A stretch of DNA of 64,000 nt from Octopus vulgaris (taxonomy: Eukaryota): assembly GCA_951406725.2 (NCBI GenBank), contig OX597830.1, forward strand, positions 8,060,001 to 8,124,000. Direction: 5' to 3'. Below the pieces are notes generated by a model. It saw only the letters and a program-made list of their open reading frames with translations, was not told where the DNA came from and did not search any database. A program made the position numbers and the translations under genes. Of the stretch, positions 10,530 to 60,215 are shown in pieces (positions within the stretch are counted from its first letter, which is position 1; every line of letters starts with the position of its first letter).

Positions 10530-13295
10530 ATAGAAGTACACTTACAGAAGTACACGTACCAAACTAGGCCATACTGCGAACAGACAGAAGGGAAAGGTGC
10601 CATGGTGGAGTTGCTGTATACATCCGTGATGATCTCCCACCCCAGGTCTTACTGTCATACTCAAAATTCGGTATGTGACACTCTAATTGTATACATAAGA
10701 TAACATAATATAGTCATATGCAATACATATTGCCCACCGGATGCTCCAAACCACATAGGCAAGTTTGAAGATTGCCTCACAAGAATTAAAGAAATCCTCA
10801 TGAATCTGGAACACCACGTGACCATATTTCTTATGGGTGATTTCAACTTCCCCAACGTCAAATGGCCCGAAGGTCTCATACTCTCAGGAATGACTCATTG
10901 CAAGCAAGCACAGGTAGAGTCCCTGCTCAACCTCACCAATGCCTTATTCATGGAGCAAGTTGTACTCAGACCAACTAGGGCGAATAACATTCTAGATCTC
11001 TGATTCACGAACAATATGGACATCATTCATGATGTGAAAGTGACACCGACATCAGTTTCGGATCACATCATAATAGAGCTGTCTATGTTTGGGCCGAAAC
11101 AGAGACATACAGCCTAAAGGAAGCACCCGAAATCTCTCCAATCTGAGCTTCCACAAAGCAGATTGGAAATCAATCCAAAAAGAGATCCTCAGAGAGGACT
11201 GTCCGGAATGTCTCTCCACACCAGACATTGACATGAAACTAGAATGCTTCATGTCTTCTGTGCAAGCCGTATGCCAGAAATATATCCCAGAGCACAAGGC
11301 CAAAACAAATAGGAGCAAGATTCCAAGAGATAGGAATATCCTCATGAGACAACGGACGAAGGTTGCAAACCGACTCAACCAACATACTAAAAGTAGCGAA
11401 ACGTCCCGCCTAAAAACAACACTGATGGAGATCGAAAAAAGGCTACAACAATCCTATGTGAGGGAGAAAGCAGACAAAGAAGCCTGGGTTATAAAAAAGA
11501 CACTAAGTCAAACCCAAAGGCCTTCTTTCATTACGCGAAAGAAACAGCCTCAGTACACTACAAGATAGGACCCCTCCTCCAAAAGGATGGCTCCCTCACA
11601 GACAGTTCAACTAAGATCAGTGAGATACTGAATGACCAGTTCAAAAGTGTATCTACCACCCCGTTGGAACACAGACAAGTAAACGAACCAGTGGACTTCT
11701 TTGCCGCCTCACCTATAACCAGCGAGGCAGTTACTATAGAATGCATTAGCGAAGATGTACTACTAGCCATAGATGAAGTGGACACAAACTCAACTGCTGG
11801 TCTTGATGGTTTCCCAGCAATCATCCTCAAATCGTGTAAACATGCCCTGGCAAAACCCCTCCAGATTCTCTTCCAGAGCTTTCTTACAAATGGCAAACTG
11901 CCAAGCAAGCTGAAGGAGGGAATAATATGCCCAATACATAAAGGGGGAAGTAGAGCAGATGCCAAAAACTATAGGCCTATCTCTCTGACTTCACACATCA
12001 GCAAAGTCATGGAACGGATAGTCAGAGGGAAACTAATCGCATTCCTTGAAAAAAATAATTTGCTAAGTGATACCCAACATGGTTTTCGACCAGGTAGGAG
12101 CTGCCTAACCCAGATCTTACAACATTATGACTGGGTGTTGAGGCAGTTACTCAACAAATCAAATGTGGACGTAATCTACATTGATTTTGCAAAAGCTTTT
12201 GAGAAGGTGGATCATGGTATGATATGCCACAAACTACGTGACCTCGGCATAGCTGGAAAACTTGGAGTGTGGTTACATGACTTCCTGAAAGATAGGAGTC
12301 AAGCAGTGGTGGCTAATAGAGCCACCTCTATGAACACACAAATAGTGAGCGGTGTTCCACAGGGCACTGTCTTGGGACCACTGCTTTTTATAATGGCCCC
12401 CTCAGATATGCCCTCAAATGCCCGTATAGCCACTCTGGCAAGCTATGCAGATGATACGAAAGTCTCACAGAAAATACAGAACCCCAGCGATGTTGCACAC
12501 CTGCAGCAGGAGTTGGACTCAATTTACAGATGGGCTGAGGATAATAATATGCAGTTTAATGCTGAAAGACTCCAGGCCCTGCGCTACCAGCATCCAAAAC
12601 TGAATATTAAACTTACAGGGTATACCGGTCCACAGGGAATTTCACCTAAGTCAGTGAGGGACCTTGGTATCGACATGAATGATGATACCTCTTTCCAAGT
12701 GCACAATACCAGGATGGCAACAAAGTGCAGACGACTGGCTGGATGGATCCTAAGAACATTCAGAACCAGAGATGAGGAAACCATGATGGTCCTCTGGCAT
12801 ACATTCGTCCTCAGCCGCCTGGATTACTGCTCGCAGCTATGGTCACCCACCAGTGTGAGATTAACAGCGGACCTTGAAGCAATCCAGAGAAGATTCACAA
12901 AGAAGATCGTCTCTTTGCAACAGCTCAGCTACTGGGAAAGGTTGAAACAGCTAAGACTCTACTCTCTGGAGAGAAGACGGGAGAGGTATGCAGTAATATA
13001 TGTCTGGACGATACTGGAAGGAATTGTGCCAAATTTTGGCATTGAAAGCAACACCAATGCCAGAACTGGACGACACTGCTTCAGGACGAGTTACTGCAAC
13101 AGCCTGGGTTTCAAGGGCCCACAGCTTTTTAATATTCTCCCAAAGTAGATGTAGGGTTTTTTAAATCAAAGCTGGACCTCTTCCTGTCGAGAGTCCCAGA
13201 TGAGCCTACCTCACGGCAAGAGGTGCAAATGTGGGTAGCTATATCAAACTCCATTTTTCATCAAGTGCCACATATTAGAGGAGGCTCCTAGTAAT
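10530..13295 (+). mobile_element. 5'-truncated, decayed CR1-group LINE (APE endonuclease + reverse transcriptase)
   Basis: APE motifs GGVAVYI, IFLMGDFNFP, NILDL and SDH across broken frames; RT motifs NYRPISLTS, QHGFRPGRSC, DFAKAF, GVPQGTVLGPLLF, YADD; C-terminal LSYWERLKQLRLYSLERRR. Several stops and frameshifts. Confidence 0.93.
11664..13148 (+). pseudogene. LINE ORF2 reverse transcriptase segment (494-aa open stretch)
   Basis: Longest non-repetitive ORF, with the YADD motif; the upstream APE part lies in other frames. Confidence 0.9.
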
Positions 13296-32247: not shown

Positions 32248-32250
<3 letters not shown>

Positions 32251-32645
32251 GATAAATATCAAAGTGAGTTATATACAGTAGCGGTAACACATCGTGACGT
32301 ATTTTTGCCATTTTAATATGGCTAACCCCTAAGGGTGGATGCTACTGTAGTTTTTAGCCCCAGGAGGACACACTCCTCCAGCTGGCCATAGACACACTAT
32401 CTGTGTCCTGTCAGTATTTGCAAAGGGAAGTCATCCTTCCCGTCTTCAACTTATGATACACACGGACTCGAGTTTCGAGGTATTGACCTCTCGTCAGCGT
32501 GTGACAATCATAGTTGTCGGCGAGAATTAGATTTCCTTCACAAATACTTATACTTTTTCCAGCGTCCACTGTCGCTGATAATGAAAAAGTGAAATCAAAC
32601 AATGATAAATATCAAAGTGAGTTATATACAGTAGCGGTAACACTA

Positions 32646-32681: not shown

Positions 32682-32796
32682 GTTGCATAAAAAGAACATC
32701 TATGTGAATGAGTGAGCCATTCTTTGATCGTATTTATCCTAGTAATATATGTGAAGGCAGTCAGGTGCATATATAATTTCTTTATTTGTGAATTCA

Positions 32797-32863
32797 TGCT
32801 ACCATTGGTTTCATGTCAAAAGAAGTAGGAAAATATCCTAGTATCTTAACAATTTTTCAAGCC
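32797..32863 (-). ncRNA. Hammerhead motif with U3-A8 core and long stem II (family B, copy 1)
   Basis: Minus strand GGC-TTGAAAA-attgttaaga..tcttttgacat-GAAA-CCAATGG-TA-GCA. Confidence 0.65.
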
Positions 32864-33584
32864 GATCATATGGAGAAAGGTGTTCGCTTCCATTTGGAGT
32901 GTAATGACAGTCTGATTTAACGAAGGACTTATTCAAAATGCACACCTGAAGAAGCACATTTTACACATTTGATGGAAGGTAGTGATTAATCACTATGTTA
33001 ATTATATCATCCCACCAATGTTCTGCGGGTTTGGCGATATTTGGAAACAATTGTAGTGGATGTGTAAGACTTATTATTCAGTTGACCATATAACTCGTCT
33101 TCAGGCTCTGCAGATTCAATTTTCTCGCTGGGAACGATAAGAAAATCACCAGAAGAATCGCCATTTTTATTAACATCTAGTGAAGCAATATCAGGTTCCT
33201 GTCCCAAAGACAGCTGCTGTATCGCTACATTCTACTAAGGAACATATGATTAAATTTTAGCCAACACTGCTTATCTGAACTGATATAAACACCTTGACTT
33301 TAAAGACAGATGAAACAAACACCAGAGACGTTTAGCCTCAAGCAGAAACTGCAGAAGATATTAAAAGCTCTTTTCTTCGTCGTAGCTAAAGCTGTCGTAA
33401 CTTTGGAAACACTTCCGTATCTTTTCTTGGCTAAATGTCTAGAGTTATATTCTGAGATTCAATATACTATTGAGCCATGCATTAATTAAAGTATCTATCC
33501 CGAATATATTATGTATACAAATTGGTCTATCTAATTAAATTAGTCTATCTGATTAAATTAAACCTCATTAATTATAGGTTTAAA

Positions 33585-33800: not shown

Positions 33801-34071
33801 CTGATGATGGATATATAAGCGGAATCGCTCTGAACTGTTACAGAAGATATTCGCTCCTTAATGACATCCCAATAAAGGACTGAAACCAGTCTTGCTAAGC
33901 CCTCTTTTTTTTAAGTTCACTAAGATATTGTATATGAAGACAAGATTTTATACATTGCGTGGTACAACATTGCAACACCTGATTAATAGTATCGCTTAGG
34001 TATTAAAAATGAATGAAATGAGTGTTCAACAACGCATTGGTGCATATATAATTTATTTATTTGTGAATTAA

Positions 34072-34138
34072 GGCTACCATTGGTTTCATGTTAAAAAGAG
34101 TAGGAAAATATCCTAGTATCATAACAATTTTTCAAACC
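34072..34138 (-). ncRNA. Hammerhead motif with U3-A8 core and long stem II (family B, copy 2)
   Basis: Minus strand GGT-TTGAAAA-...-GAAA-CCAATGG-TA-GCC. Confidence 0.65.
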
Positions 34139-34382
34139 GATCACATGGAGAAATGTGTTCGCCTCCATTTGGAAAAACATCTCGTTTCGTTCACGGGATT
34201 TCTCGTAAATTCACGTAAATGAAACAATGAATATATATATATATCGGTTTTGTAGAAACAGAAAAATAAATTAGTAAATGAGCGGTAATCGAGTGTGTTA
34301 AGTGATAAGGTACTAAAAGAGAATGATTCTCCGCAGACACAATAATGTATATATACATTCATACAATTGTTTTCCATACTTA

Positions 34383-34418
34383 CAGTTGAAAAAGTCTCAA
34401 TGAATGAAACCGGTATTG
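34383..34418 (+). ncRNA. Minimal hammerhead motif with U3-A8 core (family C, copy 1)
   Basis: CAG-TTGAAAA-AGTCtcaatGAAT-GAAA-CCGG-TA-TTG; homologous to 59862-59897. Confidence 0.6.
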
Positions 34419-34503
34419 AAATGTTTTTTATAAAATTATTTTAGCATTTTCTACCTTAGCTTTTTTCCATATATATAAATACCACACACACTACCACACA
34501 CAC

Positions 34504-42390: not shown

Positions 42391-42447
42391 CTTAGTATCA
42401 ATTGATTTCACCTTCTGTATTAAAAGCACTGAGAATCATCAGCTAAG
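42391..42447 (-). ncRNA. Type I hammerhead motif
   Basis: Minus strand CTTAG-CTGATGA-ttctcagtgcttttaatacagaaggt-GAAA-TCAATTGA-TA-CTAAG. Perfect 5-bp stem I and 10-nt palindromic stem III ATCAATTGAT; base of stem II imperfect. Confidence 0.75.
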
Positions 42448-53495: not shown

Positions 53496-53567
53496 TAAAT
53501 GTCAAACGCTGAAATGAGTGATCAACAACGCATTGGTGGATATATAATTTCTTTATTTGTGAACTAA

Positions 53568-53633
53568 GGCTACCATTGGTTTCATGTTAAGAGAAGTAGG
53601 AAAATATCCTAGTCTCTTAACAATTTTCAAGCC
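53568..53633 (-). ncRNA. Hammerhead motif with U3-A8 core and long stem II (family B, copy 3, best preserved)
   Basis: Minus strand GGC-TTGAAAA-tTGTTAAGAGAc TAGGA tattt TCCTA ctTCTCTTAACAt-GAAA-CCAATGG-TA-GCC. Confidence 0.75.
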
Positions 53634-53711
53634 GATCACATGGAGAAAGGTGTTCGCTCCCTTTTGGAAAACAGTCTCCAAAAGCCTATTTTTCCAAAAT
53701 GGAGGCGAACA

Positions 53712-54162
53712 CCATCTGGCTATACGACACACGATTTGTGTCCTTATATTTTCGAACAGAGGAGGTTAGCACCCCCACATTAGGTTGGCAAATAATCGTT
53801 ACTTCAAAGTGCTGCTACTGAATATCTCTCGTTGAAAAATTTGGGAACAACAATATTTCTATTTATTCGATCAGTGACTGTGAGTCACTTAGGAAAATAT
53901 TTATATTTTCGAATGGGTGTTTAGTAGTGCCATCTCAACCAAAGAGTTATTCTGTGCGACGAAGAGGAATAACCCTGAAACCGCACGGTCCACAGATACT
54001 GCTTTGTGCTGTGTGAGGGTGCTAGCCTTCCCTGTTCGAAAATATAAGGACACAGATCGTGTATCGTATAGCTAGCTGGAGACGCTGTCTCCTGGGGCTA
54101 AACAACAGCAGCATTCACCCCAAATGGGACTGTCGCATTAGGTTGGCAAATAATCGTTACTT
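53712..54162 (+). mobile_element. Retrozyme-like element, 358-nt unit with a 27-bp direct repeat and an inverted 5' segment
   Basis: 53778-53804 equals 54136-54162; 53712-53779 is an inverted copy of 54012-54079; 54047-54162 is the diverged reverse complement of ~32295-32410. Confidence 0.82.
53951..53996 (+). ncRNA. Type I hammerhead motif (U4 deleted)
   Basis: TCTGTG-C-GACGA-AGAGGaataaCCCT-GAAA-CCGcaCGG-TC-CACAGA; perfect 6-bp stem I, GUC triplet. Confidence 0.75.
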
Positions 54163-54179
54163 TATATATATACATATAT

Positions 54180-54398
54180 TCTTTTATTCTTTTACTTGTT
54201 TCAGTCATTTGACTGCGGCCATGGTGGAGCACTGCCTTTTGTCGACTCCACTACCTATTCTTTGTAAGCCTAGTACTTATTCTATTGGTCTCTTTTGCCG
54301 AACTGCTAAGTTACAGAAACGTAAACATACCAACATCAATTGTCAAGTGATGGTGGGGGAACAAACCCAGACACACAAACACATACATAATACATACA

Positions 54399-54472
<74 letters not shown>

Positions 54473-54497
54473 CAAATATATATATATATATATATAT

Positions 54498-54533
<36 letters not shown>

Positions 54534-54727
54534 CTGATATATAACAGATACTACACTTTTATACAACGGGCTGCTTTCACTTTCCGTCTACCAAATCCAC
54601 TCACAAGGCTTTGGTCGGCTCGAGGCTATAATAGAACACACTTGCCTAAGGTGCTACGCAGTGGAACTGAACCGGGAACCATGTGGTTGGGAGGAAAAGC
54701 TTCATACCACACAGCCACTCCTCTGCC
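54180..54727 (-). mobile_element. tRNA-derived SINE with expanded internal (TA)n
   Basis: Reverse complement of the 1863-2245 family. Confidence 0.85.
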
Positions 54728-59776: not shown

Positions 59777-59861
59777 AGGTTGAAAAGGAACACATGAGTT
59801 GATATATACGTGGAAAAAAGTCAAGGTAGAAAATGCTAAAATAATTTTATAAAAAACATTT

Positions 59862-59897
59862 CAGTACCGGTTTCAGCCATTCAGACTTTTTCAACTG
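59862..59897 (-). ncRNA. Minimal hammerhead motif with U3-A8 core (family C, copy 2)
   Basis: Minus strand CAG-TTGAAAA-AGTC tgaat GGCT-GAAA-CCGG-TA-CTG, with palindromic stem III ACCGGT; the host element has a 26-bp inverted repeat at 59816-59841/60067-60092. Confidence 0.72.
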
Positions 59898-60092
59898 TAA
59901 TTATAGAAAACAATTAAATTCTGGGAAAATTAAAAGAAAAGTTTTTTTAAAAGAATATTTGCAAAGTATTCAAATACAAGGGACATTTTCCTTGTTTCTG
60001 CCTGTTTCTGTCTCTCTTGTTTACTCTTGAGGGTTCGAGTACCGAAGTGTTTCTTTTTATAAAAATTTTTAGCATTTTCTACCTTGACTTTT

Positions 60093-60215
<123 letters not shown>

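Follow-up and report, generated by a model that had tools for sequence, protein, structure and literature searches.

On the minus strand of the 64,000-nucleotide stretch of Octopus vulgaris DNA analysed here (the window), positions 53568..53633 carry a type I hammerhead motif whose core has U at position 3 and A at position 8; it runs exactly from GGC to GCC, and is identified by its sequence, by an MFE fold that forms a three-way junction, and by a descriptor score of 16. Two further copies lie at 34072 and 32797, and all three are found on the minus strand and read, in order, UUGAAAA, a hairpin, GAAA, CCAAUGG and UA, with U3 at positions 53630, 34135 and 32860 and A17 of the G-U-A triplet at 53571, 34075 and 32800, respectively. 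A sequence-only reading of the window had described minus-strand UUGAAAA, GAAA and GUA in each copy, and the sequence confirms that description for all three.

In the copy at 53568, the 5' strand of stem I (GGC, 53633-53631) pairs in the predicted fold with GCC at 53570-53568, and leads into the core U3-U4-G5-A6-A7-A8-A9 (53630-53624). The stem II region (53584..53623) opens on a U-U apposition at its base (positions 10.1 and 11.1; 53623/53584), and continues in the fold as a proximal helix of 10 bp (53622-53613 with 53585-53594), an internal loop, and a 5-bp tip (53611-53607 with 53597-53601) closed by a 5-nt loop. The segment at 53572..53583 supplies G12-A13-A14-A15.1 and a near-palindromic stem III up to U16.1 (G12 at 53583, A15.1 at 53580 and U16.1 at 53572), and the hammerhead numbering places the predicted cleavage site immediately 3' of A17 (53571), at 53570..53571. 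Past an internal loop, the 3' strand of a distal stem I (53558..53562) is predicted to pair with 53636-53640, and an AAUAAA hexamer (53552..53557) is found in the AU-rich stretch that follows stem I. Two other features considered by eye in this region, an open reading frame starting at the ATGs within the stem II and stem III region (which opened only a 10-codon frame) and the pairing of loop 2 with the A-rich stretch downstream as a pseudoknot (likely a chance complementarity in AT-rich sequence), were dropped.

The consensus core Y3-U4-G5-A6-N7-R8-A9 with a Watson-Crick pair between positions 3 and 8, the GAAA element and U16.1-H17 are present in all three copies and in the majority of the family to which they belong. 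The base pair usually formed by G10.1 and C11.1 is absent, its place being taken by U-U or, in copies with five As, by A-U with a bulge; a fifth A follows the core in two of the three window copies. The copy at 34072 additionally displays a U-G at the base of stem I and mismatches in stem II, and stem I of the copy at 32797 is broken, with 2 bp remaining; both of these copies are decayed.

The motif is carried by a repeat, family B, that is 135-165 nt in length and whose window copies are 91-92% alike in a self-BLAST of the window. The first copy (53510..53674, minus strand) spans ~165 nt with its 3' extension, and is 91% alike to the second (34014..34176, minus; U3 at 34135) and 92% alike to the third (32764..32898, minus; U3 at 32860), which has no such extension. 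A common 5' boundary lies ~40 nt before U3 in all three copies, in agreement with the loose ends of contigs from three DNA sequencing runs, and the optional, tail-like 3' extension of ~25 nt (53510..53535, minus), as delimited by alignment ends, is present in the copies at 53568 and 34072 and missing from that at 32797. The fixed 5' end (53660-53672, minus) bears what we take to be a resemblance to the YY1 site of LINE-1 internal promoters, and on the plus strand, at 53689..53712, 24 nt of the element's 5' end recur in inverted form (BLAST, 23/24 to 34155-34177 in opposite orientation). No flanking direct repeat longer than 7 nt was found at any of the three copies. Among the 15 of 40 contig joints listed, none is head-to-tail and eight connect opposite strands, some of which the hairpin, or the inverted piece that the query contains, may have produced; a joint at 53627/53713 was rejected as an artefact of that piece (53689-53712). 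The window is AT-rich and so densely populated with microsatellites that general repeat detection was swamped by them. Pattern scans for the motif returned no match in viral contigs or prokaryote genomes and a single match in metagenome contigs, which was set aside as a coincidence of 21 nt beyond which the two sequences are not alike, and searches of public metagenome, viral and prokaryote sequence found no longer copy of family B.

Several other mobile elements are found within the window, a number of which also bear hammerheads. Identical 43-bp direct repeats (32248-32290 and 32601-32643) enclose a 310-nt insertion at 32291-32600 (minus) that harbors, at 32497, a type I hammerhead with the canonical CUGACGA core; by its sequence the insertion resembles a retrozyme monomer whose target duplication is very long. 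A relative of that element, a 331-nt insertion at 53805-54135 (plus), sits between the two perfect copies of a 27-bp direct repeat (53778-53804 and 54136-54162) and contains a decayed hammerhead near 53952 that has lost U4; an inverted partial copy of it (53712-53779) abuts family B. A second family with a UUGAAAA core is represented by copies at 59803-59915 (minus) and 34365-34477 (plus) that are 91% alike, and displays a short stem II, an ACCGGU stem III, a GUA triplet and, before the core, a pyrimidine tract ending in CAG that is similar to a 3' splice site (compare the Penelope motif of Drosophila virilis); an inverted copy of the 3' part of its member at 59894, at 60039-60107, ends no more than a few bases from the triplet predicted to be cleaved (n=1). 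The single CUGAUGA hammerhead at 42442 (minus) has a 5-bp stem I, an extra U, a long and imperfect stem II that opens on U-U, a palindromic stem III and a GUA-like triplet ending in UA; U11.1 and A17 are common to it and to both UUGAAAA families. Two abundant families of short interspersed repeats, each with more than 10 copies in the window, occupy 54160-54700.

Variation across family B was read from public contigs aligned to the repeat in four sequencing runs, for which 40 of 95 variant rows were listed. Three DNA runs contributed 1,501 (X1), 2,026 (X9) and 1,966 (X7) aligned contigs under organism labels A, E and D, respectively; the fourth (X10), whose identification as RNA is only a guess, contributed 128 aligned contigs that were not counted as evidence. 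Part of the stretch is present in 20 of the 24 public runs listed, none of the 20 being recorded as RNA, and family B is abundant and common to three organism labels; contig depth is not usable as a measure of copy number, and summed depth was left aside.

Neither 53630 (position 3) nor 53625 (position 8) is touched by any of the 40 of 95 variants listed for the four runs, and the stretches 53621-53632 and 53565-53592 are likewise free of them. The 44-57 contigs per DNA run whose alignment is clipped at the A-run give a consensus of U3-U4-G5, and the fifth A accounts for 6-13% of gapped depth, in addition to those clipped contigs. The weakest listed variant reaches ~7% in its best run, and if the variants are ranked by share, as appears to be the case, a C3 or G8 minority below ~7% may exist; further places of A>G and T>C change are present. 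The proposal that a double change shared by all copies is the consensus of the family rather than decay is upheld by U3-A8 in all three window copies, by the lack of any listed variant at positions 3 and 8, and by the U3 of the clipped-contig consensus: U3-A8 is the state of the family majority. No covariation between C3-G8 and U3-A8 was seen inside family B among the variants listed from public contigs.

The distribution of variable positions across 53510-53660 (variants at eight positions outside that range being dropped) was compared between structural regions. None of the 20 positions of the core and stem III is variable, compared with 29 among the remaining 131 (one-sided p 0.010), and when G/C sites alone are considered the difference (0/6 versus 16/49) is not significant (p 0.11). 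These data lend modest support to selection on the core, drawn as they are from 40 of 95 variants and from a depth weighting that favours collapsed conserved contigs. Three of 18 positions are variable in proximal stem II; the distal part, with 9 of 22 (p 0.009 for the excess), is the most variable region.

The interrupted stem II of ~15 bp that had been ascribed to all copies is found only at 53568 (10+5 bp); the copy at 32797 forms 8+5 bp, including two G-U pairs, and that at 34072 forms 5+2+5 bp. It is not a trait of the family, where the proximal helix is ~8 bp, the internal loop larger and the 5-bp tip variable. Most family contigs lack the pair 53614:53593, with other letters in 94-96% of depth at 53593 and in 92-98% at 53614, and variants that break pairs of the tip at 53608-53610 account for 3-21%, with no change of the partner among the variants listed; in distal stem I, 53562 differs in 26-36% of depth. 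A stem III of the form ACCA-a-UGGU had also been proposed, and that sequence is present, but its closure by a 1-nt loop is impossible: the monomer could form 3 bp with a triloop, and a dimer 8 bp. Computed alone, stem III forms no stable hairpin, and its self-duplex of 8 bp with a central A-A apposition reaches -8.2 kcal/mol.

Folding calculations place three helices around the core, with both ends in stem I, in the MFE structure of the copy at 53568 and in near-MFE structures of the other two. For the copy at 53568 the three-way junction has an energy of -25.5 kcal/mol (z -3.65), matched by one of 200 shuffled sequences. At 32797 and 34072 the MFE structure is something other than a hammerhead (z -0.06 and -0.43), the hammerhead fold of these two copies lying 1.0-1.1 kcal/mol higher, and in each of the three copies the constrained monomer hammerhead fold makes up 2-7% of the ensemble.

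A type I descriptor with four core types, applied to both strands of the window and controlled by 60 block-wise dinucleotide shuffles, returned six matches: C3-G8 cores at 32497, 42442 and (doubtfully) 40918, and U3-A8 cores at 53630, 34135 and 59894. Cores with U3-G8 or C3-A8 gave no match on either strand of the window. Shuffled sequence yielded 0.02-0.07 matches per core type at a score of at least 9, and none of the 60 shuffles contained a match at a score of at least 14, against a score of 16 for the copy at 53568. Two of the three family B copies were recovered, the one with U3 at 32860 being missed because its stem I is 2 bp. Rfam reported no hammerhead among its four matches at E<=10 on the 201 nt of 53500-53700, as had been anticipated for standard searches confronted with a UUGAAAA core, and none among the 150 of 336 matches listed for the whole window, where the matches correspond to microsatellite-driven miRNA models. 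On the strength of sequence and modelled structure the motif is a genuine type I hammerhead, whose activity is predicted.

The 3-8 pair and its natural covariation to U3-A8 in several examples were documented by Perreault et al. 2011 (PMC3088659), a source that also describes U10.1-U11.1 as the best tolerated mispair. The claim that U3-A8 is a rare natural functional variant has a printed basis as regards natural U3-A8, but the implied rarity and novelty are not supported: a dedicated descriptor retrieved ~1,300 U3-A8 motifs in the Cercyon Penelope-like elements (PLEs) of Schistosoma mansoni (Cervera and De la Pena 2014; PMC4209133). By our own count, U3-A8 appears in two of the 56 rows of Fig. 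S3 of that paper, both from S. mansoni, and U3-G8 in one. The PLE-associated Cercyon row S. mansoni (4) of that figure contains a UUGAAAAA octamer identical to that of family B. Family B and Cercyon, as far as the latter is described there, are both of type I with a U3-A8 core, a 3-bp proximal stem I, a longer helix II and a palindromic helix III, and both occur mostly as single scattered copies with U-rich sequence before and AU-rich sequence after the motif. Family B differs from Cercyon in its U-U at 10.1/11.1, its GUA triplet, a helix II that continues past the internal loop, a helix III whose two 4-bp sides surround an odd centre (such a centre is absent from Cercyon), and in that no linked open reading frame was found. 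The PLE rows for Hydra, Aedes, D. willistoni and Saccoglossus (2) in the same figure share a palindromic helix III of 3-4 bp and a long helix II, and several have A17; they differ in having C3-G8 and a paired 10.1-11.1 (PMC4209133). Among the natural variants given in the available part of PMC3088659, U3-A8 and U10.1-U11.1 are not described together, nor is a high-copy animal repeat, and the available part of PMC3884650 adds nothing further on U3-A8.

In cephalopods, an octopus repeat annotation lists Penelope-like families, and the words hammerhead and ribozyme do not occur in its main text (PMC13282606); a squid genome report gives 235 matches to hammerhead 1, with no detail in the part available (PMC6962438). 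A literature search on hammerheads in connection with octopus, cephalopods or U3-A8 turned up no description of family B, which repeat libraries, Lunse et al. 2017 or Przybilski and Hammann 2007 may cover.

The anatomy of family B corresponds to that of PLE hammerheads, with a 3-bp stem I, a helix II of ~8 bp and a palindromic helix III, and the extra A appears in two of three window copies and in a minority or more of contigs. That family B is a PLE pseudo-LTR stub is suggested, at the level of sequence, by a 5' end that is fixed, an extension that is optional at the 3' side, pieces found in inverted form, and the proximity of other stubs that bear hammerheads. An optional 3' extension and inverted pieces are traits of PLEs (10.1101/2021.04.23.441226), the eight opposite-strand joints among the 15 of 40 listed point the same way, and each family B copy lies 252-363 nt from one of five other hammerhead-bearing stubs located by the descriptor and by window-wide BLAST (p ~0.0002 under uniform placement, with a threshold picked after the fact and n=3); that clustering was counted toward a PLE origin because PLEs tend to insert beside earlier copies (PMC6765202). 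Several points stand against such an origin: the tail of PLEs is 30-40 bp, longer than the ~25-nt extension; PLEs are truncated randomly at their 5' ends, whereas the 5' end of family B is fixed; and family B lacks the G10.1-C11.1 pair that is conserved in PLE hammerheads.

Protein-coding sequence near the copies was sought with Pfam. None of 82 stop-free segments near the hammerhead sites scored above the cut-off (82 of 96 segments, eight others being scanned separately and six of microsatellite derivation left out), and one of 16 longer open reading frames did so, through an RVT_1 domain at 11397, 20 kb away, such that no reverse transcriptase or GIY-YIG domain was found near the copies, which also counts against a PLE origin. 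That frame (11397-13148, plus; 583 codons; RVT_1 at E 1e-27) is, by its motifs, presumably a CR1/L2-type LINE and not a Penelope element.

The explanation that we favour, with moderate confidence, is that family B carries a PLE-kind type I hammerhead in a short, high-copy stub, corresponding either to the hammerhead-bearing end of a PLE (pseudo-LTR plus tail) or to a non-autonomous derivative, in which cutting would be weak and aided by dimer formation or by protein, and the scattered copies would be inert. The change from C3-G8 to U3-A8 would have taken place in the source element, with the tertiary 3-8 pair kept. Because the A15.1-CCA-A-UGG-U16.1 stem would be too weak in one molecule and would reach 8 bp when two copies pair, cleavage after GUA is predicted chiefly for transcripts that are in tandem or assisted by the protein of the element, and the A-U core pair, together with the U-U apposition on which stem II opens, would make it slow. 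Most likely, family B RNA would cut weakly, as a dimer. Pairing through palindromic stem III has been proposed for dimer-dependent hammerheads, and PLE motifs display low activity even as dimers (PMC4209133), while a lizard PLE hammerhead requires the element's protein (PMC11167929). In that lizard element single mutants at position 3 or 8 abolish cleavage and a double mutant partly restores it; its uncut RNA is the substrate for insertion, and two internal starts define its optional tail (PMC11167929). The public contigs show no step-down in depth at the predicted cleavage site of family B, nor is there a loose end at that site among 24 of 558 loose ends listed, which fits the copying of uncut RNA described for the lizard PLE. 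The scattered single copies would accordingly have been reverse-transcribed from uncut RNA with a fixed 5' start and several 3' ends, and would be mostly inert.

An unlikely competing explanation is that family B is a dead relic of a hammerhead-bearing element, in which the amplified master no longer cleaved, U3-A8 became fixed by AT-biased drift within the A-run, and the element spread without cleavage. The U-U at the base of stem II combined with a weaker A-U core pair, the small share of hammerhead fold in the monomer ensembles of the three copies, the fact that both core changes are transitions towards A/U, and the lack of 3/8 covariation among the family B variants listed are all consistent with inactivity, as is the finding that hammerhead mutants leave PLE insertion unaffected in vitro (PMC11167929). 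Against drift, the core and stem III contain no variable position while distal stem II contains many, descriptor matches with the mismatched U3-G8 and C3-A8 cores are absent from the window, and a second, unrelated UUGAAAA family is present at 59894 and 34387; ribozymes with U3-A8 and with U10.1-U11.1 are, in addition, reported as tolerated (PMC3088659).

It is doubtful, and less probable again, that family B is a stand-alone non-autonomous retroelement with defined ends, either a retrozyme monomer or a hammerhead-bearing SINE, rather than a piece of a longer PLE. Such an element would explain the fixed 5' boundary seen in all three window copies and in the loose ends of three DNA runs; its stem I internal loop would be that of canonical type I motifs, and stubs of retrozyme size with long direct repeats lie next door. 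The axolotl retrozyme HHR_Amex2 is likewise a short, low-GC type I repeat with a U-U at the base of helix II, and is cleaved better as a dimer (PMC7229834). Retrozymes are, however, described as tandem repeats of 170-400 nt with a canonical core, contacts between loop 1 and loop 2, and long target duplications; in family B none of this is seen: its ~165 nt lie at or below that range, its copies are single, with no tandem joint among the 15 of 40 listed, no direct repeat longer than 7 nt flanks any of the three copies (versus 43 and 27 nt at two neighbours), its helix sizes are PLE-like rather than the canonical 6/4 bp, and the window contains no tRNA gene. A 2026 preprint (10.64898/2026.07.22.740005) argues that animal retrozymes derive from PLEs, and the gap between these two explanations therefore narrows.

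A more elaborate combination appears improbable: that family B is a fixed-length PLE product, copied from an internal start back to the 5' end of the transcript across an uncut ribozyme and homing beside hammerhead stubs; that U3-A8, the U-U and the odd-centred stem III keep each molecule silent alone and allow cutting only when two transcripts pair; that the copies constitute a pool of trans-pairing half-ribozymes; and that a new tertiary contact joins the internal loop of stem II to the loop of stem I. Least probable by far is a chance look-alike, an AT-rich hairpin repeat resembling a hammerhead, for which the AT-rich sequence, the Rfam result and the failure of two of the three copies to fold as hammerheads may be cited, and against which stand a core whose elements are all in register and conserved, its match to printed PLE motifs, and a score of 16 where no shuffle of 60 reaches 14.

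The core variant is already in print, and what is new is a family with a somewhat unusual mix of tolerated deviations; because of that precedent, and because cleavage and the PLE link are here predicted from sequence and models, the gain is incremental. It adds a very high-copy U3-A8 hammerhead family, missed by Rfam and present in at least three organism labels; it provides a natural test case for hammerhead tolerance of an A-U core pair combined with a U-U at stem II; and it bears on the question of what the hammerheads of PLEs do.
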